Virus genome (UHGV): UHGV-0186982
DNA: 23,918 bases
Origin: a virus
Direction: 5' to 3' (one strand)
In this document: positions 312 to 11,465 of the stretch, in pieces
How the letters are laid out: every line of letters starts with the position of its first letter
Position numbering within the stretch: position 1 is the stretch's first letter
Position numbers and translations under genes: made by a program
The notes under the pieces: generated by a model
Seen by the model: the letters and a program-made list of their open reading frames with translations, nothing else
What the model was told of the DNA's origin: nothing
Database searches by the model: none

Positions 312-1319
312 CTACCTGACCTCTTCACGATTATCAAAAGGGTTTAACGCAACGGCAGCATCAAGATGATTGGGGGCGAAATGCGCATACCTCATCGTCA
401 TCATGATCGTACTGTGCCCGAGTATCTGCTGAAGCACTAAAATATTCCCCCCACGCATCATAAAGTGACTTGCGAAGGTATGGCGTAGTACATGGGTACG
501 CTGCCCCCTTGGCAACTCAATAGCGGCTCGTGCAAGCGCTGATTTGAATGCTTCGTATGCTGGAGTAAAAAGTGCTCCGCGTTTTTTGGGTAGCAGCTTC
601 TGTAGCTGTTCAGAAATCGGTACAGTTCGATTTTTTTTGCTTTTGGTCTGCGTAAACGTCAACCGGCCAGGCAGAACCTGAGATTGCTTTAAATCCTGCG
701 CCTCGCTCCACCTTGCGCCGGTCGCCAGGCATATCCGCACTATGACCCCCAAATCCTTATTTGCCGATTGATCGCAGGCCGACAAAAGTCGCACTATCTC
801 CTCATCGTAGAGGAAGGCCAGCTCCTGATCCCCCTCCTTGAATTGCCTGATGCCCGACAGTGGGTTATCGCCCTCCCATTCACCCAACCGCTTCATCTCT
901 GAAAAAACCGCGTGCAGGTACGACTGCTCGCGATTTACCGTCGCCTCACTGAGTTTCTTTTTGCCTTTCTGATTCCACTCACCGGCCAATCGTTTTTCAC
1001 GATAAACCGCAAATGTATTTTTATCGAAGCGAGACGCGAGGGGATCGCCCAGGCGCTCGCAAATCGCCAATAACTTCACCTTGCGTTCATCCCCAGATGT
1101 TAGCGTTTTGCCGTGCATTTCGTACCAGCGCTCAACGAAAGCAGAAAGCGTCACCGCGCTGTCGTTTACCTCCTGACTAGTTGCGTTGTTCATGGTGCGG
1201 CGCTCAAAAGAGAGCGCCTCGCCTTTGGTAGCAAACTGCTTACGAATACGCTTTCCGTCACGACCATACGGAAAGCACTGGCATAACCATTTTCCTGATG
1301 TGAGCTTACGAACGGTCAT
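312..1319 (-). CDS. int: Tyrosine recombinase, P2-type phage integrase
   Basis: N-terminus MTVRKLTSGKW...GRDGKRIRKQF and C-terminal HVLRHTFAS...LGHSTIMMTMRYAH (R..HxxR..Y catalytic region). Start placed at the Met matching the P2 Int N-terminal pattern; the longer ORF back to 1403 would overlap the upstream gene by about 100 nt. Confidence 0.9.
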   Translation of the reverse strand: MTVRKLTSGKWLCQCFPYGRDGKRIRKQFATKGEALSFERRTMNNATSQEVNDSAVTLSAFVERWYEMHGKTLTSGDERKVKLLAICERLGDPLASRFDKNTFAVYREKRLAGEWNQKGKKKLSEATVNREQSYLHAVFSEMKRLGEWEGDNPLSGIRQFKEGDQELAFLYDEEIVRLLSACDQSANKDLGVIVRICLATGARWSEAQDLKQSQVLPGRLTFTQTKSKKNRTVPISEQLQKLLPKKRGALFTPAYEAFKSALARAAIELPRGQRTHVLRHTFASHFMMRGGNILVLQQILGHSTIMMTMRYAHFAPNHLDAAVALNPFDNREEVR

Positions 1320-2502
1320 AATTGAACAAATCCACAAATTTAGGCACTTGCTCTGATTTCCTCTCCCAGTAACACCCAGACTGAAGCAATGATATGAAAT
1401 CATCTTGGGTCATTGAGAGTGTACTTGTTGTTATCAGGCGTTTTTTGGTCTCGTCTGGAGTCAAAAGCTCAACCGTAACAGTACCCGGATCATATGATTG
1501 GCTTTCCATGAGGATTGGTGCATCAGTTAGTTTTCTGGGGGTAATTAGACGATTAGGGTTGAAATCACCAGTAAAGCTTCCTTCAAATGATGCGATGGTC
1601 TCGTAACCGGAGAAACAGTCAAATTGTATTTGCAATACCATCGCATGAGGTAATGTTAAAAACTCACTCCAATCTGTGTAGCCTAATTTGTCACTATAAA
1701 AAGTATCGCCGCGCTGGAACTGGTAAGACGTTCCTTGCGTCCATACATCATAGGTGTTTTTTTCAAATGTTATTTTAGTTAGTTTAATGTCTAGCTTGCT
1801 TTTGAATACTTCTTTGATTGCGAATTTCCATCCGGCTGCATAGCCATCAATAAAGTTTGCAATAAGGGCGGTGCTTCTACGAGGCTCTCTTAACGTTCTA
1901 AATGTAAGGGATAGTGCTTCCAAATCTTTTTTCAGCGAATCTACTTCGGAAGTGATTTTCTCTTCATGAATAACATCTAGCTCAGGCGCTTCGTAGGGAA
2001 TCTCACCAGTCTCTATAAAGGCGATGAACTGTTCTTTGCTTATGATAAAGGCGTTTCGAGCCCTTGCCTCTTCAATCTTCCTCCACCCCATATTATCCCC
2101 TACGCAAAGGAAATATAGGTTTGCAGAAACACCGCCTTTAACAGATAAGTTGTTATTCTTCGCTAATTCGGTTAAATATGCTTTGTCAGCCTGCTTAAAA
2201 CCAGTAAAACAGATTTCTAAATTATTTCCTCTTTCCAATTTACGACTAGGGCGTGGCTGCGTTTTCGGTACGATGGATTCTTTGTCCAAAGTAGCATTAA
2301 GCAATTCATCTTCCGACATGAACATTTTCAGAACTCGATCTTTTCTAAAAGTCCTGAATGCCTTTCGATTAATAGAGTAGCCTTGGAAAAACTCATCTCG
2401 CTCAACTACGCGAGTTACACTTTGCCGTGACACCTCTCCTTTGACATTGATGTAATGGAAGAAAGCATTTTTATCTTCATTGATAAGAGATGAATCAAAC
2501 AT
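1306..2502 (-). CDS. Hypothetical 398-aa protein with a BRCT-like central domain; moron inside the repressor-integrase operon
   Basis: Long ORF in an AT-rich block; strong SD (aaggagtg) 7-8 nt upstream of the ATG at 2502; 14-nt overlap with the int start; central segment NLEICFTGFKQ...VSANLYFLCVGDNMGWRKIEEARARNAFIISKEQFIAFI has the BRCT pattern seen at the C-terminus of NAD-dependent DNA ligase. Confidence 0.75.
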   Translation of the reverse strand: MFDSSLINEDKNAFFHYINVKGEVSRQSVTRVVERDEFFQGYSINRKAFRTFRKDRVLKMFMSEDELLNATLDKESIVPKTQPRPSRKLERGNNLEICFTGFKQADKAYLTELAKNNNLSVKGGVSANLYFLCVGDNMGWRKIEEARARNAFIISKEQFIAFIETGEIPYEAPELDVIHEEKITSEVDSLKKDLEALSLTFRTLREPRRSTALIANFIDGYAAGWKFAIKEVFKSKLDIKLTKITFEKNTYDVWTQGTSYQFQRGDTFYSDKLGYTDWSEFLTLPHAMVLQIQFDCFSGYETIASFEGSFTGDFNPNRLITPRKLTDAPILMESQSYDPGTVTVELLTPDETKKRLITTSTLSMTQDDFISLLQSGCYWERKSEQVPKFVDLFNYDRS

Positions 2503-2544
2503 TTATCACTCCTTTATTTTTTTAATTGGCTCTAATTCTGTGAA

Positions 2545-2898
2545 TTAATCGTCACCAGTTTTTACTCGTGGCTTTGATTGCGCAAACGCATCACCAACCG
2601 CCTGTATGTTTAAGCGCGCCGCCTCATCCATCGCGCGGTAGTTTTCTATGAGTTTTTTTTCTTCTTCGCTTTCCGTGACCATGCCATCTGGTTGGAGGGT
2701 CCGTTGCCCAGTAAGTACATACAATATATCAACCCCGATTTTTGCCAGTGCCGAGAGGTATTTTGCATCTGGTGATCTCTCATCTCGTTCGTAGTAGGCC
2801 TGAGAACCACGTGACTGTTCTGCCAGTTTGGCAAAATCTGTTTGATTTAATCCGAGTTTATCCCGCTCCTCGCGAAGCCTGCTTCCGAATGTGGACAT
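2545..2898 (-). CDS. Immunity repressor, HTH XRE-family (cI/C-like)
   Basis: N-terminal HTH LGLNQTDFAKLAEQSRGSQAYYERDE; divergent from the early operon; immediately upstream of int in the same orientation, as in P2 and 186. Confidence 0.8.
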   Translation of the reverse strand: MSTFGSRLREERDKLGLNQTDFAKLAEQSRGSQAYYERDERSPDAKYLSALAKIGVDILYVLTGQRTLQPDGMVTESEEEKKLIENYRAMDEAARLNIQAVGDAFAQSKPRVKTGDD

Positions 2899-2981
2899 AA
2901 ATTGCTTTCCGATCTTGACTTGATTACGTTCGTGATCAAAACTAACTCACACCAACAACTAGCAGATCACAATATACCACT
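2899..2981. promoter_or_regulatory. Lysis-lysogeny switch region: divergent promoters and candidate operator
   Basis: 83-bp gap between divergent repressor and early genes; near-palindrome TTGATTACG-TT-CGTGATCAA (2920..2939, 8 of 9 arm matches); TTGACT -35-like hexamer at 2915..2920; three GATC sites. Confidence 0.5.
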
Positions 2982-3194
2982 ATGACACAAGCACATCATA
3001 TCCAGAGGTCTCGTACGCCTAAGAATAGCGTCGCCGGTGGGGCGCTACCGTTAAGGCTCTCCCCAGAAGAGCGCGCAGCCATTGAGGAAATGGCAAAAGC
3101 CGAATGCCGCTCTGCTTCAAACATGATTCGTATCGTTTTTTTGCGTGGGCTTGAGGTCATGAAGCCTGGGCAAGAGGCACACCCAGAAAACTAG
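2982..3194 (+). CDS. Small early regulator, possible ribbon-helix-helix protein in the Cro/Cox/Apl position
   Basis: First ORF of the rightward operon; LRLSPEERAAIEEMAKAECRSASNMIRIV resembles RHH (CopG/Arc-like) DNA-binding proteins; no clear SD. Confidence 0.5.
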   Translation: MTQAHHIQRSRTPKNSVAGGALPLRLSPEERAAIEEMAKAECRSASNMIRIVFLRGLEVMKPGQEAHPEN

Positions 3195-3213
3195 ACGTGT
3201 ACCGGGGTGAAAC

Positions 3214-3417
3214 ATGTCAGGCGTAACTATCAATTTAAACGTTGCCGCGCCTTATTTATCTCTAAAGGAGTATTCCAGGATTACGGGTATTCCGTTTGAG
3301 ACATGCCGGGGCATGGTGAAGGACGGGCGGATCATCATCCGACCAAAGGAGCTTTCGGGGGGCAAGGTTGAGGTAAATATGATCGCCATGCTCAAGGATG
3401 CCATCGCGAACAGTTAA
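3214..3417 (+). CDS. Small DNA-binding protein, possible excisionase/Cox-like winged helix
   Basis: SD ggggtga upstream of ATG; LSLKEYSRITGIPFETCRGMVKDGRIII is HTH/excisionase-like. Confidence 0.5.
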   Translation: MSGVTINLNVAAPYLSLKEYSRITGIPFETCRGMVKDGRIIIRPKELSGGKVEVNMIAMLKDAIANS

Positions 3418-3429
3418 TAGAGGCAGGGA

Positions 3430-3693
3430 ATGAATAAACGCTACTCAAAACACGGCAAGTATGCGGGAAGTATTCATATCGTGGCGGGCGATAACTTACC
3501 TAAAGTCGTTTGGATAAATAAGCACGCTGGAATTTGCTGCGGCTTCACCATCCGCGTATTACCGCGCAGGGTAGGCAAGAAGCGTTATCAAATCATGAAA
3601 GATGGTGATTCTTTCGGAATTGACTTTGCGTTATCTGAAGCACGCAAAACGATAGATCGTATTATTAATAACAACCGCTTCACCATTCATTAA
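3430..3693 (+). CDS. Hypothetical early protein (87 aa)
   Basis: ORF with SD gaggcaggga before the ATG; tightly packed in the early operon. Confidence 0.5.
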   Translation: MNKRYSKHGKYAGSIHIVAGDNLPKVVWINKHAGICCGFTIRVLPRRVGKKRYQIMKDGDSFGIDFALSEARKTIDRIINNNRFTIH

Positions 3694-3709
3694 ATAACCG
3701 AGGCAGAAA

Positions 3710-4516: not shown

Positions 4517-4741
4517 ATGTCGATCAAGTCAATAAAACTGGATGGCGGAATTAGCGATCCAGAGTTTGTGGAAATAAGCGCCAACGCACGGAAACACGAG
4601 CGCGCTCACGTCCTTGGCATGCTCCGTGATTTTGTCGGTCAGCTGAAAAAGGAAAGCGCCACCCCGGAAGAGATTTATTCATCAATCGAACAGTGGGCCA
4701 ACGCCCGCGAATTAACCATCACTGAGGAAAGCAAACAATGA
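4517..4741 (+). CDS. Hypothetical early protein (74 aa)
   Basis: ATG at 4517 preceded by aggagg; the track ORF begins at an upstream TTG (4496) that lacks an RBS; stop overlaps the next gene start (ATGA). Confidence 0.5.
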   Translation: MSIKSIKLDGGISDPEFVEISANARKHERAHVLGMLRDFVGQLKKESATPEEIYSSIEQWANARELTITEESKQ

Positions 4742-5316
4742 ACCATTTAATGATTGATATTGAAACGCTCAGCACCCAGCCGAATGCGGTAATTTGCGCG
4801 ATTGGCGCAGTCTTCTTCGAACCGTCAACCGGAAAAATCGGCCCTTCGTTCTATCAGACCATTGATCCGCGTACCTCGCAGAATCGTGGCGCTCACATCT
4901 CCGCCGACACAGTGATGTGGTGGCTCCGGCAGGATAAAGAACCTATCAGCGAGCTGGTAGGCGCGAAGTCGCATGAAATTGAGGTGATGCTGGATTTTGC
5001 CAAATTTATTGAAGGCACATTCCCTGAAACCACGAAAAAGAATCTGAAGGTCTGGTGCAAGGGCGGTTCGTTTGATTTTCCGATCCTCAAATCTGCATTT
5101 GAGCGCTCATCGCTCGAAGGCGTGCCTATGCTTCCGTGGGGCTACTGGAATGAGTGCTGTTTCCGATCGCTGCTAACCGTGGCCGGTGTTATCGGTTACG
5201 CCCCCCACCCGCGACGCTCAGTCGCACACAACGCTTTAACCGACGCCATCTATCAGGCCGAGCAGGTTTGCGAGATCTGGCAGCGCCTGACTTCCCCGCA
5301 CCTCGAATCATTGTGA
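4738..5316 (+). CDS. DnaQ-like 3'-5' exonuclease
   Basis: N-terminal LMIDIETLSTQP (Exo I motif, D-x-E) and downstream acidic and His motifs (HNALTDA), as in small phage-encoded exonucleases. Confidence 0.75.
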   Translation: MNHLMIDIETLSTQPNAVICAIGAVFFEPSTGKIGPSFYQTIDPRTSQNRGAHISADTVMWWLRQDKEPISELVGAKSHEIEVMLDFAKFIEGTFPETTKKNLKVWCKGGSFDFPILKSAFERSSLEGVPMLPWGYWNECCFRSLLTVAGVIGYAPHPRRSVAHNALTDAIYQAEQVCEIWQRLTSPHLESL

Positions 5317-5320
5317 GGGC

Positions 5321-6283
5321 ATGACAATGATTAAATCACCCATCAAATGGGCGGGCGGTAAAACCCGCGTCATGCCGCAGCTGCTGAAGCATCTGCCGAA
5401 AGCCGATTGCCTGATTGAGCCGTTCGTTGGCAGCGGTACCGTGTTTATGAACACGGAATACCGCCGCTACGTCCTCTGCGATAGCAACCGCGCGCTGATC
5501 AATTTCTTTCTTGTATTGAGGGATGATACAGAGCGCCTGATAGCGGTTGCCCGCAATATATTTCGGGACGGTAACAAAGCAGATAAATATTACTCCGAGC
5601 GCGAAAAATTCAATTACATGTCATGGTATGAATCAGAAAAGGATTGCCGATCGACATTATGGGCGGCGTCCTTTTTGTACCTGAATCGCCACTGCTTCAA
5701 CGGTCTTTATCGTACAAATCTGGACGGCGGTTTTAATGTGTCATTTGGCCGATATAAACAGCCATATTTCCCCGAAGCCGAAATGCGCTTATTCGCCGAA
5801 AAAGCGCGGGATACCAACGCGCTATTTCTTTGCAATGATTTTCGCACTTCTATTCCGTACATCGCGAAGAATCGCCCGGACTCAGTAATTTACTGCGACC
5901 CCCCCTATATCCCGGCAAGCAAATCCGCCAATTTCACCGCATACGGCAAGCCGTTTACCCTGGACGATCATCGTGCTCTGGCTGCAACCCTGCTCGATGC
6001 TCATCGCCAGCACGGCACCCGCGCGGTGATATCCAACAGCGATACCCCGGAAACCCGCGAGATTTATTCCGCTTTCAACCTCCACGCCTTCAGCGTTCGC
6101 CGTTCCGTTAGCGCCAAAAGCCGCGACATGGCCGGTGAAGTGATCGGCGTGATTCCTGATTCAGTCGACTGCTATACGCGTAGTTGCGCTAGCTGCGAAG
6201 ACGTCGAGGAATGCTTAGCGCCGACAGAGATTTGGATCGGGTTTGATATGGCCGCCGGATTTGATAACGGGGAGCCTTTCTGA
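5321..6283 (+). CDS. dam: DNA adenine methyltransferase, Dam family (D12 class N6-adenine MTase)
   Basis: IKWAGGK...EPFVGSGTVF...LYLNR..FNG...FGRYK.PYFPEAE...YCDPPY...NFTAYG closely parallels E. coli Dam as I recall it; has an extra Cys-rich C-terminal tail (CYTRSCASCEDVEEC). Confidence 0.9.
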   Translation: MTMIKSPIKWAGGKTRVMPQLLKHLPKADCLIEPFVGSGTVFMNTEYRRYVLCDSNRALINFFLVLRDDTERLIAVARNIFRDGNKADKYYSEREKFNYMSWYESEKDCRSTLWAASFLYLNRHCFNGLYRTNLDGGFNVSFGRYKQPYFPEAEMRLFAEKARDTNALFLCNDFRTSIPYIAKNRPDSVIYCDPPYIPASKSANFTAYGKPFTLDDHRALAATLLDAHRQHGTRAVISNSDTPETREIYSAFNLHAFSVRRSVSAKSRDMAGEVIGVIPDSVDCYTRSCASCEDVEECLAPTEIWIGFDMAAGFDNGEPF

Positions 6284-6540: not shown

Positions 6541-7653
6541 TTGGCTCCCGATGGGCTGTCTCGCCTTTCGTGTTTTCTCTGTGGTGTGGGAGGCGCTGTG
6601 GTTGCTTATTACAACGAAATAGACCCTCACGCAGCACAGCACCTGCGCAACCTTATCGACGCCGGCCATATTGCGCCGGGCGTCGTTGACACCCGTTCAA
6701 TTGAGGATGTAACCCCCAATGACCTTATCGGATTCAATCAGTGCCATTTCTTCGCCGGGATCGGCGGATGGTCGCTTGCCTTACGCCGCGCAGGATGGCC
6801 AGACAGTCGCCCGGCATGGACAGCATCATGCCCATGCCAGCCTTTCAGCGCGGCAGGCAAAGGACTTGGGTTTGCTGACGAGCGGCACTTATGGCCCTCC
6901 GCACATTGGCTTGTCGGCCAGCGCCGCCCTGTCGTGGTTTTTGGCGAGCAATCTGGCAGCGCTGACGCAGCGGACTGGATCGACCTTGTACAAGCTGACG
7001 TGGAAGCCCTGGGCTATGCCTTCGGGGCGGTTGCGTTTCCGTCTGCGAGCGTCGGCGCGCCGCACCAGAGAGACCGCGCTTATTGGGTGGCCGACGCCGG
7101 CCGCGAACGAGTTCGAACCGAAGGACTTGCAAAGGCTCTTGGAGAGAAGGGAGAAATTCGCGGCCAAGCATGGAAACAACGGGTTTGGCCTGACACTAGG
7201 GCAGGCGGTGCATCTGTTTGCGGGCTGGCCGACACCGACGGCAACGGACGGGAAAGGCGGTTATCAGGGTGGACGAATCCGCAATGGGAAGCTATCGACG
7301 GACAGGCTAGATGTGGCTGCGCAGCTTGCGGGCTGGCCGACGCCGACCACGAGCAACGACCGCTCGCCATGTCCGCAAGAGGCTATGCGGACGTATCGCG
7401 ACAATGGAACAAAGATTCAGAAGCGGCTTCAGGATGTAGCTGCGTTATGCGGCCCGGCCCGGTTAACGGCTTCTGGAGAGATGCTGATTGGCTCCACGGC
7501 CGGGATGGATGGTGGAGGCCAGTTAGACCCGGATCATTCCCGCTGGCTGATGGGATTCCCGCCAGAGTGGGAAGAGTGCGCGCCTACGGAAACGCTATCA
7601 ACATTGAAGCGGCGGCAGCGTTCATAAAAGCGTATATGGCGGCGGAACAATGA
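6541..7653 (+). CDS. DNA cytosine-5 methyltransferase, apparently frameshifted (motifs split between two frames)
   Basis: Frame 1 has motif I-like FLCGVGG, NEID, PCQPFS (motif IV), PHQRDR (motif VIII) and C-terminal GNAINIEAAAAFIKAY (motif X); the overlapping frame 6719..7627 has WPTP repeats and RWLMGFPPEW (motif IX). Stop overlaps the A start (ATGA). Confidence 0.6.
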   Translation: MAPDGLSRLSCFLCGVGGAVVAYYNEIDPHAAQHLRNLIDAGHIAPGVVDTRSIEDVTPNDLIGFNQCHFFAGIGGWSLALRRAGWPDSRPAWTASCPCQPFSAAGKGLGFADERHLWPSAHWLVGQRRPVVVFGEQSGSADAADWIDLVQADVEALGYAFGAVAFPSASVGAPHQRDRAYWVADAGRERVRTEGLAKALGEKGEIRGQAWKQRVWPDTRAGGASVCGLADTDGNGRERRLSGWTNPQWEAIDGQARCGCAACGLADADHEQRPLAMSARGYADVSRQWNKDSEAASGCSCVMRPGPVNGFWRDADWLHGRDGWWRPVRPGSFPLADGIPARVGRVRAYGNAINIEAAAAFIKAYMAAEQ

Positions 7654-10133
7654 CCGCCGCATCAACTGCACCTCACATCGCGCAGCCAGCTCGCGCTGAC
7701 GCCACCCGGTATGATTACGAGTGGCAGAAGCCGAGACCTGCCATTTATGTTGATAAGACTCCTGCTGTTGATCTGGTTGAACTTGGTCAAGAGAAGGAGT
7801 TTTTGGCGTGGGTAAAAGTCACCCTTGCGCCGCTACCTCGCTTTATTCGCCTGCGTCTGGCTTCCCGCGTCGACAGCATTCACACCATGAAGGGCAGACA
7901 CATCGCCCGCCTGGCGCTGCGCGATATCATCCGCAGGGATCTGCCGCCTATCAATATGGTTAATGAGCAATATGCTATTGCGATGACCGATGAGGCTAAA
8001 TCTCAGGCCGATACGGCATTTAAGGGGTTAAACCCGCTTTATCACACGTTTAACACCCTGCATGGGCTGGTTGAGCGCTTTAATCGCCTGCCGGATTTCA
8101 CGCCGGAAGATGTCGAGCTGCTGGCGCAGGATATCGCCATCTATATGCGGTCTGTGCTGAGTGAAGTTCACGAAACTATAGAGACGCAGAGTGATCGCAA
8201 ATATGCCGGGTACCTTTACACCGAAGCGGCCATCCTCGCGCGGCTTTTCTTCCTGACGCCACCGAGCTGGGGAAAGTATTGTCGCGGCGCGTTGTTTATT
8301 GACGAAGCTACTACCGGCATCAGCAAGATGCTGGATGATCGCTACTGGCACCGCAACCTGAAAAAGTACGCCACGCGCTGGCGCGAGCATCTGCACATTG
8401 CTTTTGGCGATGTGAAACGGGGTGCTGCACCGTATTGCAGCAAGCACCACGTTGACGAGTGGGACGCCAGGCGCAAGCGCAGCCGCGCGATCATGGCCCG
8501 CCTTGAACTGGAAGACCAGGATACCAAAGAGCGCATTTCACTTATCGAGCAGATCGATAAGAGCATATCTAACCCGGCGTTGCGCCGCGTTGAACTTATG
8601 ACCCGTATCGGCGGCTTTGAGAAAGTCGCCACCGAAAGCGGCTACGCGGGTCAGTTTTTTACCCTGACAGCGCCATCCAAATACCACGCATATACCGTAT
8701 TCGGTCATCGTAATGCCAAATGGAACGGCGCCAGCCCAAGATCCACGCAGCGCTACCTTAATCGGGTATGGCAGAAAATCCGCGCAGAGCTGGCCCGCCG
8801 CGAAATCCCGGTTTTTGGTCTGCGCGTGGCCGAGTCTCACCACGACGGTACGCCGCACTGGCATGGCCTGCTGTTCTCTTTGCCGGAACATTCCGCCGAG
8901 CTACTGGAAGTGATGGAAGACTACGCCACCCGCGAGGACGCGGAAGAGTTACAGGGTAAGCATGGCAACCAGCCGCGCTTTGACATGAAGCCTATCGATC
9001 ATGAAATCGGCAGCGCCACCGGCTACGTGGTGAAGTACATCAGTAAGAATATTGATGGCTATGCGCTCGATGGTGAAACTGACGACGAGAGCGGCCGGCC
9101 ACTCAAAGAAACATCTAAACATGCTACTGCCTGGGCTTCATGCTGGGGTATCCGTCAGTTTCAGTTTTTAGGCGGCGCGCCGGTGTCTGTCTGGCGCGAG
9201 TTGCGCCGGTTCCGCAATCAGGAGCAGGCCGACAAGATAAACCCACTGTTTGCCGAGCTACACCGCGCGGCCGATGCTGGCGACTGGCAGCAATACACTC
9301 AATTACAGGGGGGCGCACTGGTTGCCCGCCGCGATCTGCCGCTGCGTATCTGGTACCAGCAGAAAGACGAGCCGAATGATTACGGTGAATATCGCGACCT
9401 CATCAAAGGCCTGATGATGCCAGCCGTTCAGATCCCCCCCATTGAAACCCGCCTGCATTCCTACTCAATCGTAAGGAAGAAACCGGAGGTTTTAGACGAC
9501 TCCGGGCAGGCAGTTGACTTTGATTTTGACCTTCCGGGCGCGTCTGCGCCCTCTAGGACTCGTGTCAATAACTGTACCGAGGTTAAAAAACGAACAAATC
9601 AGCCCCCCGGATCACCGCCATTAATGACAGTGCCAGCTGAGCGGGAAGAGCCTGAACAGTTCGAGATCGGTCAGTTAACACGCGAACAGCGAAAACAGGC
9701 GTTTGAAAGCATCCATAACCACAAACCGCAGCGGCATAAATCCCCCGCCGATGAGTTTGAGGCGCTGGCGTACAGCATTACCGTCGGCGACTGTACAGAA
9801 TTTGACACCCGCAGGGCAGAAAGTTATCTCAAGGCCGCCCAGGAGATTAGGCGGAGAGAACAGGTTTTATCACCGGAAATCGCCGGACTGGCGGGCTTAG
9901 TTCAGTCATGGGCGAAAGTGAAGAAGGTGCTGATCAGTAAACCGCAGGCTATACAGCTGGCGCGCGGTAATGAAGTGACGGTGCTGGATACGGTATATCG
10001 AGCGCATCCGGTTACGGGTGAGTTGATCATTGCAGGCGTTGATAAACCGTGGCGCAAAACTCTTGCAGATCATAAGGCCGGCGAGCTAGCGGCTCGCTGG
10101 AAGAAGGCAGCTAAACGGAAAAATGAGAGGTAA
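7650..10133 (+). CDS. A: Replication initiation endonuclease, P2 gpA family (rolling-circle HUH nickase)
   Basis: HUH motif TPHWHGLLF and catalytic tyrosine motif GYVVKYISKNIDGY; 827 aa; position after the early genes. Confidence 0.9.
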   Translation: MTAASTAPHIAQPARADATRYDYEWQKPRPAIYVDKTPAVDLVELGQEKEFLAWVKVTLAPLPRFIRLRLASRVDSIHTMKGRHIARLALRDIIRRDLPPINMVNEQYAIAMTDEAKSQADTAFKGLNPLYHTFNTLHGLVERFNRLPDFTPEDVELLAQDIAIYMRSVLSEVHETIETQSDRKYAGYLYTEAAILARLFFLTPPSWGKYCRGALFIDEATTGISKMLDDRYWHRNLKKYATRWREHLHIAFGDVKRGAAPYCSKHHVDEWDARRKRSRAIMARLELEDQDTKERISLIEQIDKSISNPALRRVELMTRIGGFEKVATESGYAGQFFTLTAPSKYHAYTVFGHRNAKWNGASPRSTQRYLNRVWQKIRAELARREIPVFGLRVAESHHDGTPHWHGLLFSLPEHSAELLEVMEDYATREDAEELQGKHGNQPRFDMKPIDHEIGSATGYVVKYISKNIDGYALDGETDDESGRPLKETSKHATAWASCWGIRQFQFLGGAPVSVWRELRRFRNQEQADKINPLFAELHRAADAGDWQQYTQLQGGALVARRDLPLRIWYQQKDEPNDYGEYRDLIKGLMMPAVQIPPIETRLHSYSIVRKKPEVLDDSGQAVDFDFDLPGASAPSRTRVNNCTEVKKRTNQPPGSPPLMTVPAEREEPEQFEIGQLTREQRKQAFESIHNHKPQRHKSPADEFEALAYSITVGDCTEFDTRRAESYLKAAQEIRRREQVLSPEIAGLAGLVQSWAKVKKVLISKPQAIQLARGNEVTVLDTVYRAHPVTGELIIAGVDKPWRKTLADHKAGELAARWKKAAKRKNER

Positions 10134-10693: not shown

Positions 10694-10769
10694 CCGTGCT
10701 GGCCATTCTATCGAGCACCGCCATTTTTGGCGGTGCTGCAGGTGTTATTTTTTGGGGAGCGAGAAGGCT

Positions 10770-11465
10770 ATGAGTTATCTGGGAAGCAAAGCGGCCAGCG
10801 GTGTTTATCAAAAAATCATCGCTGAAATGCCGCCGCACGATACCTACATTGAAACGCATTTAGGCGGCGGCGCGATCATGCTGCGCAAACCTCCGGCAAA
10901 AGTGAATTGGGGGATCGATATCGACCCGCAAACCATCGAGGCGTTTAACCAGAGCAACCCTGATTTTCTGGATAGGATGGCGGACACCCTATTTATTGAT
11001 GTTGGGGATGCCGTCGAGTTCTTGTGTTGTTTCGATTACGCCTCCGCCGGCCGCGTCTTAATTTATTCTGATCCGCCTTATCTCCATGAAACGCGCTCCA
11101 GCTCCGCGCGCTATCGGCATGAGTACACCGTTGGTGATCATTACCGCCTGCTGGGATTACTCTGCTCGATGCCGGAAAACGTGAGCGTAATCGTATCGGG
11201 GTATCCTTCTTCGGTTTATGACAACGCCCTGCCGCGCTGGCGCAGCAAGGAGTTTCAGGCCATGACGCGCGGCGGCGTTCGTACAGAGAAAATCTGGATG
11301 AACTACCCGGAAGGCCGGGCGTATTCGCACGCGTTCGCCGGTAAAGACTACAACGATCGCTATCGGATTAAACGAAAAGCGCAGAGATGGAAGGAAAAAT
11401 TTGCAGCGTTACCACCCGCCGAGAGGTTGGCGATCATGGTGGCGCTTGGTGAGGTCGAAATTTGA
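10770..11465 (+). CDS. DNA N6-adenine methyltransferase (second D12/Dam-like MTase)
   Basis: N-terminal YLGSKA and catalytic YSDPPY; ATG at 10770 preceded by gagaagg (track ORF starts at upstream TTG 10752). Confidence 0.8.
   Translation: MSYLGSKAASGVYQKIIAEMPPHDTYIETHLGGGAIMLRKPPAKVNWGIDIDPQTIEAFNQSNPDFLDRMADTLFIDVGDAVEFLCCFDYASAGRVLIYSDPPYLHETRSSSARYRHEYTVGDHYRLLGLLCSMPENVSVIVSGYPSSVYDNALPRWRSKEFQAMTRGGVRTEKIWMNYPEGRAYSHAFAGKDYNDRYRIKRKAQRWKEKFAALPPAERLAIMVALGEVEI

Follow-up and report, generated by a model that had tools for sequence, protein, structure and literature searches.

What is the 83-bp gap between the divergent repressor and early genes of this prophage for, and do the near-palindrome and the three GATC sites within it control the choice between lysogeny and lysis? 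The locus belongs to a stretch of 23,918 nucleotides of UHGV virus genome UHGV-0186982 (the whole of which is called the window here). The window represents the left end of a P2-like (Peduoviridae) prophage, with P2-type backbone genes that include a GPA replication protein, a P2-type integrase with an Int_N domain (Pfam) and, on the right, P2-like late genes. The switch would set a leftward 117-aa XRE-type HTH repressor against a rightward early operon, whose predicted order is an Arc-like ribbon-helix-helix (RHH) protein, a Cox-like protein, further genes including a Dam methylase, and then replication protein A. The gap itself (2899–2981) is bounded by the first two of the following genes.

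2545–2898, minus strand: immunity repressor gene, 117 aa (open reading frame; Pfam HTH_3)
2982–3194, plus strand: early gene 1, encoding a 70-aa Arc-like ribbon-helix-helix protein (match to phrog_3431, "Arc-like repressor," at E = 3e-22)
3214–3417, plus strand: early gene 2, encoding a 67-aa Cox-like excisionase/repressor (match to phrog_575, "Cox-like excisionase and repressor," at E = 1.8e-25)
5321–6283, plus strand: phage Dam, a D12-class N6-adenine methyltransferase in the early operon (Pfam MethyltransfD12, E = 4e-58)

The RHH open reading frame also gives a weak Pfam match to NikA-like RHH proteins, and its counterpart in Escherichia phage 520873 carries the annotation "Arc-like repressor." DNA searches with 2400–3700 did not uncover any close counterpart to the immunity region; the downstream DUF4761 gene was the only match in the phage collection, and the RHH/Cox part (75% identity) the only one in E. 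coli genomes. No CII- or Tum-like gene was recognized among the annotated open reading frames of the window, and its eight one-mismatch LexA boxes (6.1 expected), none of them in a regulatory position, offer no link to the SOS response.

The initial annotation had proposed that a 20-bp near-palindrome, TTGATTACG-TT-CGTGATCAA, is the operator of a dimeric HTH repressor. This sequence is present at 2920–2939 as described, and its arms are complementary at eight of nine positions (the mismatch is T2925, where C would be expected). Comparison with about 60 related switch regions refines its core to an 18-bp inverted repeat of two 7-bp half-sites separated by 4 bp (7-4-7), TGATTAC-gttc-GTGATCA, at 2921–2938. 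The palindrome alone is weak evidence, and it is the comparison among loci that makes the case a strong one: the window contains nine 9-2-9 inverted repeats with no more than one mismatch (3.2 ± 1.5 in Markov simulations), and the probability that any given 83 bp contain one is about 0.007. A seeded repeat search of 2850–3050 did not report the palindrome because its arms lack an exact 6-bp seed, and inverted repeats were scored with our own script instead. The sequence TGATCAC-N4-GTGATCA, with up to three mismatches allowed, has a single match in the window, at 2921–2938, and so even at that tolerance the window holds no tandem cooperative operators in the style of OR1–OR3 or OL1–OL3. The half-site, for which the initial annotation had suggested a search elsewhere in the prophage, is otherwise found only as isolated GTGATCA 7-mers (at 11134, 12879, and 23120) at chance frequency. 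A CRP site was considered for the TGTGA-like words here and was rejected by inspection, the spacing being 11 instead of 6.

The position of this inverted repeat relative to the predicted lytic promoter (Pe) gives it its likely meaning. The elements concerned are as follows.

2915–2920, plus strand: Pe −35 hexamer TTGACT (all enteric and Burkholderia relatives have TTGACn or TTGGCA here)
2921–2938, no strand assigned: predicted operator, 18-bp 7-4-7 inverted repeat (recurs at a fixed position; takes up the Pe spacer and extends onto the first −10 base)
2938–2943, plus strand: Pe −10 hexamer AAAACT (17 bp past the −35; matches the consensus at three of six positions, among them the critical A (position 2) and T (position 6))
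2950–2951, plus strand: predicted Pe transcription start, a conserved C-A pair (36 of 37 segments have the A at 2951, which follows the −10 by 8 nt)

The TTGACT hexamer is where the initial annotation had placed it, and the operator proposal holds up, since every related switch has an 18-bp 7-4-7 dyad in this place that varies with the recognition helix of its repressor; it is refined in that the core fills the spacer and reaches the first −10 base, and does not chiefly overlap the −35. In the predicted Pe the operator occupies the whole 17 bp between the conserved TTGACn and a conserved nAnnnT, in which A2939 and T2943 are each 92% conserved among 37 distinct switch segments; relatives have AAGAAT, AATACT, CATACT, or AATAAT at the −10 position. 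A consensus promoter/terminator scan of 2899–2981 called neither Pe nor the repressor promoter Pc that is discussed below, and both calls are therefore based on conservation across loci.

At every related locus the order is the same: TTGACn, a 7-4-7 inverted repeat immediately behind it, and then nAnnnT. The loci fall into 12 immunity types, each of which has its own, different palindrome at the operator position. The best inverted-repeat scores of the 12 types sum to 72, compared with 44.0 ± 2.9 in shuffled sequences (maximum 58 in 200,000; z about 9.6). Recognition helices and the half-sites that accompany them include the following.

QSRGSQAYYE: TGATCAC..GTGATCA
CSRNAQAIYE: TGACCAA..ATGGTCA
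VKKLTQLNYE: GGTATAA..TTATACC (type B)
VKKLTQLRYE: GGTATCT..TGATACC
VSTRTWGKYE: TAGGAAC..CTTCCTT
VAFRTYCDYE: TTTGCAG..CTGCAAA
IAKNTQLNYE: GTCCCAA..TTGGGAC
VGKTTQINYE: GGTTCAT..ATGAACC

As judged from these alignments, it is the recognition helix of the repressor that the palindrome follows, and not the neighboring RHH or Cox-like genes. All relatives of types A and A′ have an identical or related operator, and among those found by protein homology the GTGATCA of the right arm never varies. Degeneracy is seen in the left half-site, which agrees at six of seven positions in the window, five of seven in locus L012, and only four of seven in the A′ group, and in the Yersinia and Burkholderia types the half-sites are complementary at only five of seven positions. 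A scan of viral contigs for TTGACNTGAN8GTGATCAA gave 29 matches, of which five are real switch regions (L054, L057, L059, L060, and L069) and the rest chance; because the pattern is biased for the right arm, these loci were left out of the claim that this arm is invariant. Part of the covariation between repressor and operator is simple linkage, since the two are physically adjacent, and the independent evidence is the dyad symmetry that recurs at one fixed position rather than covariation alone. Near-identity between heteroimmune phages resumes at about 2957–2961, the apparent exchange point.

The repressor is of a build that would suit such a site. Its AF2 model (pLDDT 84.7) has an N-terminal five-helix XRE/Cro-C1 HTH domain (Pfam HTH_3, E = 8.6e-7, above the gathering score), a linker, and a C-terminal two-helix hairpin of 30 residues; Pfam gave no match to a Peptidase_S24 (LexA-like autocleavage) domain. 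The best fold matches of the model are the N-terminal domains of P22 c2 and 434 repressors (rmsd 1.4–1.7 Å; structures 3jxb and 2r1j, with 2or1 in addition), and it superposes on the operator-bound P22 c2 domain with an rmsd of 1.4–1.5 Å over 65 residues at 31% identity. Among PDB sequences at E ≤ 0.01 its sole match is ImmR (7t8i; E = 6e-4, which is marginal), and P2 C is not matched. Ninety-nine homologs were found, annotated only as HTH proteins or prophage regulators; in the repressor alignment the variable residues are concentrated in helix 2/3, and the N-terminus and the C-terminal hairpin are conserved. From the dyad symmetry of the site and the helical hairpin of the modeled C-terminus we infer that the repressor binds as a dimer. 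It would act as the DNA-binding half of the lambdoid CI repressors does and is not a full member of the CI architecture. A literature search found no experimental work (binding, footprint, or transcripts) on this repressor family.

Facing Pe, and in the block that is shared among immunity types, lies a candidate for the promoter of the repressor gene.

2971–2979, minus strand: candidate Pc, extended −10 element TGGTATATT, facing Pe (conserved across 37 segments)
2963–2964, minus strand: predicted Pc transcription start (minus-strand pyrimidine at 2964 and purine at 2963; the purine is present in 35 of 37 segments)

The TG and TATATT of this element are invariant in the 37 segments and the "n" of TGn is any of the four bases; some of these positions were fixed by the pattern used to anchor the alignment, and C2978, which is free of that pattern, is conserved in 37 of 37. 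Burkholderia relatives have TATACT in the equivalent place, and no −35 is recognizable. The conserved promoter-like elements suggest a face-to-face layout in which Pe would start rightward near 2951 and Pc leftward near 2963, and a Pc start there would give the repressor mRNA a 65-nt leader that crosses the operator. The block with the candidate Pc is at once leader and start region for the RHH gene, and that role alone could explain its conservation. Two other features of the block were considered. AGATCAC at 2964–2970 was rejected as a third repressor half-site, as the identical sequence adjoins repressors of types B, C, D, H, and I; and CACAA occurs at 2968 and 2986, 18 bp apart, a possible but unconvincing pair of RHH-type repeats.

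We conclude that the palindrome is very probably the single site at which the repressor of this P2-like prophage acts on the lytic promoter, keeping the phage silent. Each subunit of a repressor dimer would place its recognition helix (QSRGSQAYYE) in the major groove of one outer 7-bp half-site, the central 4 bp remaining uncontacted as with P22 c2, and the bound protein would shut RNA polymerase out of Pe. The promoter of the repressor's own gene is probably the extended −10 element on the opposite strand; it would be aimed at Pe from about 12 bp away and therefore be subject to mutual exclusion or interference, like P2 Pe/Pc and 186 pR/pL, so that repression of Pe would bring an indirect gain for repressor synthesis. 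Two of the three GATC sites would be there by virtue of sequence function, one as part of the half-site consensus and the other of the conserved Pc block, and the third would be fortuitous. Taken as a whole (a single 18-bp operator in Pe, occlusion by the repressor, the candidate Pc, and GATC sites explained by sequence function) we regard this scheme as likely. The operator portion of it is well supported, if by computation only, because palindromes at a fixed position track the recognition helix and the repressor model superposes on the P22 c2 domain.

Could the inverted repeat serve some other purpose? It might act in RNA, as a 7-bp stem with a 4-nt loop in the leftward repressor leader that affects mRNA stability or translation, and the 65-nt leader would indeed hold it if Pc starts near 2963; the 7-4-7 dyad is also kept in every immunity type. 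We nevertheless find this very improbable, as selection for pairing predicts the opposite of what is seen in types A and A′, where one arm stays constant and the other has drifted down to four or five of seven complementary positions. The mismatch in the window is moreover C-A in the minus-strand RNA, hence not a wobble pair, the dyad follows the repressor recognition helix, and its fixed place between −35 and −10 is accounted for by promoter occlusion instead. Another candidate for the protein that binds here is one of the two whose genes adjoin the palindrome on the other side, the Arc-like RHH protein or the Cox-like protein, in place of the HTH repressor. Such proteins do bind switch regions in other phages: Arc and Mnt do so in P22, and P2 Cox is described as doing so in its own phage (PMC1904263, PMC3936717). 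Here, however, loci L013, L014, L011, and L082 have RHH proteins 93–97% and Cox-like proteins 97–100% identical to those of the window and yet have different palindromes; L013 in particular (RHH 96%, Cox-like 100%, repressor only 60% identical) has a wholly different one. Conversely, L006, L012, and L084 keep the GTGATCA site with RHH proteins only 47–49% identical. The β-strand region of the RHH proteins (…(L/M)RL(S/T)…) is common across types, which fits a target in the shared block at about 2957–2981, and the idea that they or the Cox-like proteins own the palindrome is, if anything, a little less probable than a role in RNA. That the palindrome is simply a chance occurrence without function is scarcely credible, in spite of the nine comparable inverted repeats in a window where about three are expected; a dyad at the same promoter position in 12 types and a right arm conserved among relatives that were found by protein homology both speak against it.

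The initial annotation had counted three GATC sites in the gap, pointed to the Dam methylase of the phage, and suggested that methylation could modulate the switch. The sites are there:

2911–2914, no strand assigned: GATC site 1, in the interval that separates the −35 from the repressor start codon (unconserved)
2934–2937, no strand assigned: GATC site 2, within the right half-site GTGATCA of the operator
2965–2968, no strand assigned: GATC site 3, in the block common to all enteric immunity types, between the candidate Pc −10 and start

The methylase is equally real. The product of 5321–6283 aligns over its full length with E. coli Dam (2g1p; E = 8e-65) and keeps K9, N120, L122, R124, R137, Y138, K139, and the DPPY motif, with differences at Y119F and P134S; most of the residues that contact GATC in the E. 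coli structure are retained. Conservation differs among the three sites. Site 1 is kept in only two of 34 segments, the window and L087, and L088, whose repressor is 98% identical, has AATC in its place. Site 2 is present in all 15 segments of types A and A′, which are closely related, and in none of the other immunity types. Site 3 (−17, counted from the RHH ATG) occurs in 31 of 34 distinct enteric segments, irrespective of operator type, and its conservation does not exceed that of the surrounding block. Finding three GATC sites in 83 bp chosen beforehand has a probability of about 0.010; the cluster is not unusual by itself, as the window holds fewer such triplets (four) than random placement would give (9.2 ± 3.2).

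A Dam-sensitive switch would be an addition to the operator model, in which methylation of site 2 shifts the affinity of the repressor, and/or that of site 3 shifts Pc or recruits SeqA, and lysis-lysogeny is biased as a result; the candidate states are hemimethylation after replication, protection by bound repressor, and a burst of phage Dam after derepression. The invariance of GATC in the right half-site and its frequency at −17 are compatible with this, and so is the place of the phage dam gene within the repressed early operon, with most of the GATC-contact residues kept. Both methylatable adenines of site 2 would, by analogy, lie in the outer half-site, where P22-type repressors make their major-groove contacts. 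IS10 pIN, agn43/OxyR, and pap/Lrp are known Dam-sensitive promoters or regulator sites, and at agn43 OxyR and Dam compete. Promoters also hold rare unmethylated GATC sites that are apparently shielded by bound proteins, most of which become methylated when Dam is overexpressed (PMC6092372); a GATC in the intA promoter of prophage ST64B competes with IHF and controls reintegration (PMC12455584); Fur at sci1 is reported to compete with Dam (PMC3145626); and λ pR is stimulated by SeqA through GATC sites, as cited in PMC2777414. By analogy, a bound protein could compete with Dam at the window GATC, which like these systems combines a GATC in a predicted regulator site (2934) with one in a candidate promoter core (2965) and a Dam-positive host. 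Unlike them, it has its operator GATC as a trait of one specificity lineage (A and A′) among twelve and not of the whole switch family. The left arm has a GATC in only four of the 15 A/A′ segments and has none in the window, and phage Dam also accompanies the GATC-free operators of types B, C, and H. Enterobacterial hosts carry their own Dam, and the phage enzyme is therefore not needed to methylate the switch sites, which the host would normally do. Nor are the GATC sites conserved beyond what their surroundings require, the right-arm GATC being part of the half-site consensus. We consider methylation sensitivity unlikely, and these sequence comparisons do not support Dam methylation as a regulatory design of the switch, or do so only weakly; a literature search found no Dam control of a P2-like switch. 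Still less likely, to our minds, is a more elaborate scheme in which repressor and Dam compete at the operator and a Pe-driven burst of methylase modifies the operator and/or Pc, after which the repressor could not regain control.

How does this switch compare with known ones? It shares with P22 c2 and 434 a repressor with a five-helix Cro/C1-type HTH domain, an operator that is an 18-bp dyad in which the outer 7-bp half-sites are conserved and the four base pairs at the center vary and are mostly A/T-rich (P22 c2 itself has 18-bp sites whose four central base pairs are not contacted), and the overlap of that operator with the (here predicted) lytic promoter. The λ CI, P22 c2, and 434 cI repressors have a C-terminal S24 peptidase domain and undergo RecA-dependent induction, whereas the present repressor has a short two-helix hairpin in place of the S24 domain; it also has one operator instead of a cooperative OR1-3/OL array, and the phage backbone is P2-like, not lambdoid. 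Coliphage 186 (CI, Apl, pR/pL) differs in its CI repressor, which is larger, multimeric, and served by several operators, and in that no CII-/Tum-like gene is recognized in the window and LexA boxes are not above chance there. The likeness to 186 lies in the P2-like backbone, a small DNA-binding protein encoded first in the early operon, and (predicted) face-to-face promoters, all of which fit the account of 186 and its face-to-face lytic and lysogenic promoters in PMC7498355. P2, W-Φ, and P2 Hy dis belong to the same phage family and share divergent genes, a Cox-like protein, and promoters that are apparently convergent with overlapping transcripts (predicted here). In the P2-type switch the repressor is described as blocking Pe (PMC1904263), and the C proteins, of which that of P2 has a reported crystal structure (PMC2995052), as binding two direct repeats (PMC2995052, PMC1904268); the window site is an inverted repeat instead, and the early operon opens with an additional Arc-like RHH gene, ahead of the Cox-like gene. 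Nilsson and Haggard-Ljungquist (2011) could not identify regulators of the P2-C/Cox or 186-CI/Apl type in ΦE202, Φ52237, ΦCTX, and ΦRSA1 (PMC3448106), and homologs of the window repressor are present in phages of the Φ52237 and Ralstonia groups.

As a switch element the palindrome is of an ordinary kind, and the Peduoviridae switch type to which it belongs has received little study. The switch findings will not surprise phage biologists, and the Dam link would be of interest only if it were shown experimentally; were the more elaborate scheme true, the early-operon Dam would be a commitment device, giving methylation-based positive feedback in a phage lysis-lysogeny switch. The element would define the immunity determinant of this prophage and of a widespread P2-like group found in Raoultella, Klebsiella, Serratia, Yersinia, E. 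coli, Burkholderia, and others, whose regulators the searchable literature labels "not of the P2 or 186 type" or "putative repressor." The 7-4-7 rule lets the superinfection-immunity group of such a prophage be read from its recognition helix and the 18-mer after TTGACn, and the twelve natural pairs of helix and half-site form a small data set for the rules of HTH recognition. The apparent exchange point near 2957–2961 shows that immunity cassettes have been swapped against a shared Arc-like/Cox-like module.

The window covers the left portion of a P2-like prophage. Besides the genes listed below, its rightward operon encodes small proteins of unknown function (Pe is the predicted rightward early, or lytic, promoter).

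Features of the switch region and its flanking genes
312-1403, minus strand, integrase (Int_N and Phage_integrase domains)
1306-2502, minus strand, 398-aa cargo ORF
2545-2898, minus strand, 117-aa HTH_3 protein (repressor)
2915-2920, plus strand, predicted Pe -35, TTGACT
2938-2943, plus strand, predicted Pe -10, AAAACT (weak in the window)
2982, plus strand, start of the rightward operon
2982-3194, plus strand, Arc-like ribbon-helix-helix (RHH) protein, rightward operon
3214-3417, plus strand, Cox-like protein, rightward operon
4738-5316, plus strand, 3'-5' exoribonuclease Rv2179c-like protein (Pfam E=1.7e-51), early operon, immediately 5' of the Dam gene
5321-6283, plus strand, D12-class adenine methyltransferase (phage Dam), rightward operon
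7650-10133, plus strand, P2 GPA replication protein, rightward operon

The 398-aa ORF sits between the integrase and repressor genes. Its N-terminal part resembles a BRCT domain (Pfam BRCT E=0.004), and it matches phrog_2561 (annotated "DNA ligase," E=1e-35), phrog_36782 (unknown function, E=2.5e-74) and, weakly, the PADLOC candidate defence protein PDC-S48 (E=4e-5). In related prophages other genes occupy this slot (encoding 291, 199 or 327 aa, or 185 plus 140 aa; in further relatives a BRCT protein and a membrane protein). The slot resembles a hotspot for variable cargo, possibly with a role in defence. The longest integrase ORF (363 aa) shares 98 nt with the 3' end of the 398-aa ORF, and since integrases called in relatives have 335-341 aa, the true start is probably ~25 codons downstream. 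A second DNA methyltransferase-like ORF (10752-11465, plus strand, 237 aa, TTG start) lies 3' of the replication gene and matches phrog_56 (E=1.5e-36) and PADLOC MTase_II (E=1e-23); a Pfam search gave no match.

The 83-bp gap between the repressor gene and the rightward operon (2899-2981) contains, as the initial annotation had pointed out, a -35-like TTGACT hexamer (2915-2920), a 20-bp near-palindrome, TTGATTACG-TT-CGTGATCAA (2920-2939, 8 of 9 arm positions complementary), and three GATC sites (starting at 2911, 2934 and 2965). Without comparison the palindrome does not stand out statistically: 9-2-9 inverted repeats with one mismatch or none number nine in the window versus about three expected, and a given 83-bp stretch would contain one with a probability of ~0.007. 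Switch regions with relatives of the repressor were compared across GTDB genomes (L001-L008), IMG/VR contigs (L011-L048), contigs with close repressor homologues (L079-L088), one prophage of E. coli (L010) and the Xuanwuvirus (Peduoviridae) Escherichia phage 520873 (L078). Aligned with the RHH start codon as anchor, the enteric loci match almost without gaps, and the distance from the -35 to the RHH ATG differs by only 1-2 nt. Each has TTGACn, then an 18-bp inverted repeat of two 7-bp arms around a 4-bp center (7-4-7), then an nAnnnT hexamer 17 bp after TTGACn. Twelve immunity types have twelve different palindromes at this one position, with a summed dyad score of 72 versus 44.0±2.9 for shuffled sequences (maximum 58 in 200,000 shuffles). 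In this frame the window site, of the type A/A' group, is TGATTAC-gttc-GTGATCA (2921-2938, 18 bp), and no other site in the whole window matches the group consensus TGATCAC-N4-GTGATCA with up to three mismatches. The earlier proposal that the palindrome is an operator of the HTH repressor is very probably correct, since the dyad recurs at a fixed position and changes with the recognition helix; its extent is refined to the 18-bp 7-4-7 repeat in the Pe spacer. Yersinia-type loci (L002-L005, L017-L034) have a second palindrome, AGGAAT-N4-ATTCCT, upstream of the -35 and ~35 bp left of the one in the spacer, and their longest repressor ORF starts at a CAT within the promoter-proximal palindrome, so loci of this type may use an alternative start codon or have a second operator.

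Three findings indicate that the palindrome is read by the leftward HTH protein, whose nearest relative in the protein collection is 98% identical (Raoultella planticola). Across immunity types the palindrome differs whenever the predicted recognition helix differs, and small helix changes pair with small half-site changes (SRGSQAYYE with GTGATCA and SRNAQAIYE with ATGGTCA; LTQLNYE with GGTATAA and LTQLRYE with GGTATCT); variability in the repressor alignment lies almost only in helices 2 and 3, the remainder being conserved. The palindrome does not follow the early genes: the heteroimmune locus L013 has an RHH protein 96% and a Cox-like protein 100% identical to those of the window, yet its repressor is only 60% identical and its palindrome unrelated, while L006, L012 and L084 retain GTGATCA though their RHH proteins are only 47-49% identical. 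In the AF2 model of the repressor (pLDDT 84.7) a linker joins a five-helix HTH domain to a C-terminal helical hairpin, and the modelled HTH domain superposes on operator-bound P22 c2 (rmsd 1.4-1.5 Å) and on the 434 repressor. As a dimer, P22 repressor occupies an 18-bp site without contacting the central four base pairs (PMC4267663); the operators compared here have the same geometry, with mostly A/T-rich central tetrads, and the modelled structure fits the HTH protein as operator reader. The covariation is in part linkage, because repressor gene and operator are adjacent; the argument independent of linkage is the dyad symmetry recurring at one fixed promoter position. In L009 (a Pseudomonadota MAG, 3001-3150) only the conserved C-terminal repressor hairpin matches (residues 61-114, 67% identity), adjoining a tRNA-like sequence; it probably represents what remains of a prophage at an attachment site.

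Given the predicted Pe hexamers, the operator fills the Pe spacer and touches the -10, a classical arrangement for excluding RNA polymerase. In the -10, A 2939 and T 2943 each show 92% conservation among 37 distinct segments, and the C-A pair conserved at 2950/2951 is compatible with a transcription start near 2951. All enteric immunity types share a block directly 5' of the RHH ATG, CTTAGnnGATCACAATATAnCAyTATG, which reads TGnTATATT on the minus strand; in the 37 segments TG and the hexamer are invariant and n is all four bases, some invariant positions being imposed by the anchoring pattern, though not the G of TG. This is the signature of an extended -10 promoter, the candidate leftward repressor promoter Pc, which would start near 2963 and direct transcription across the operator and on into the repressor gene. 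The two promoters would lie face to face, ~12 bp apart, and repression of Pe would relieve interference on Pc; Pc, the facing arrangement and this relief are plausible predictions. A consensus promoter scan called neither promoter. The Pc block doubles as the RHH gene leader, and no Shine-Dalgarno sequence precedes the conserved ATG. The RHH protein (2982-3194, and its equivalents in L001-L088) keeps its N-terminal arm QRSRxPK and β-strand (L/M)RL(S/T) across immunity types, and the shared block 2957-2981 is an obvious candidate for its DNA target.

Near-identity between the window and heteroimmune relatives resumes rightward from about 2957-2961, an apparent recombination junction, which suggests that repressor, operator and Pe core form an exchangeable immunity cassette. 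Pc and the Arc-like and Cox-like genes would be the shared module against which it appears to be exchanged.

The initial annotation had also suggested that methylation by a phage-encoded Dam could modulate the switch. In E. coli Dam, K9, N120, L122, R124, R137-K139 and DPPY are the GATC-contacting and catalytic residues. The methyltransferase at 5321-6283 is indeed a Dam homologue, aligning end to end with the E. coli enzyme (2g1p, E=8e-65) and retaining all of these, so GATC specificity is likely. The cluster of three sites is by itself not striking (P ~0.010 for a chosen 83 bp; four such triplets in the window versus about nine under random placement), and in the enteric switch segments GATC is confined to four positions.

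GATC positions in 34 distinct enteric switch segments
-17 from the RHH ATG (window 2965), 31 of 34, in candidate Pc between -10 and start
Right operator arm (window 2934), 15 of 34, all type A or A'
Left operator arm (GATT in the window), 4 of 34
-71 (window 2911), 2 of 34

The site at 2911 is fortuitous, being so rare and missing from L088 despite a 98% identical repressor; that at 2934, found in the right arm of types A and A' only, belongs to the half-site read by the repressor, and that at 2965, present in nearly all segments, to a block conserved as a whole. An effect of methylation is physically possible, because the contacted outer half-site and the promoter discriminator both contain methylatable adenines, and there are precedents for competition between proteins and Dam at promoters (PMC6092372; PMC12455584) and, as cited in PMC2777414, for SeqA acting at a phage promoter. 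However, operators of the other immunity types lack GATC, the phage Dam gene also accompanies type B, C and H operators, and the sequences give no sign that methylation control shaped the switch; we consider such modulation an improbable addition to control by the repressor.

Acting on a single operator, the repressor would resemble in function the DNA-binding half of the P22 c2 or 434 protein, without the S24 cleavage domain and tandem operators of lambdoid repressors. Promoter layout and the Cox-like gene resemble the P2 switch, to which the window adds an Arc-like first gene; facing promoters are described for both P2 (Pe/Pc) and 186 (pR/pL). P2 C binds direct repeats, whereas the window site is an inverted repeat, so the repressor is not of the P2 C type. 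Phages phiE202, phi52237, phiCTX and phiRSA1 have, according to Nilsson and Haggard-Ljungquist (PMC3448106), regulators of neither P2 nor 186 type. The window repressor has homologues in phi52237-group Burkholderia phages and KL3, as well as in many Ralstonia and some Pseudomonas phages. These are annotated by homology only, for example KL3 gp13 "repressor" (PMC3091744), and we found no experimental operator mapping for this repressor family in the literature searched. The mechanism itself is ordinary; the 18-bp 7-4-7 site in the Pe spacer and the rule that holds across the family are the new details.
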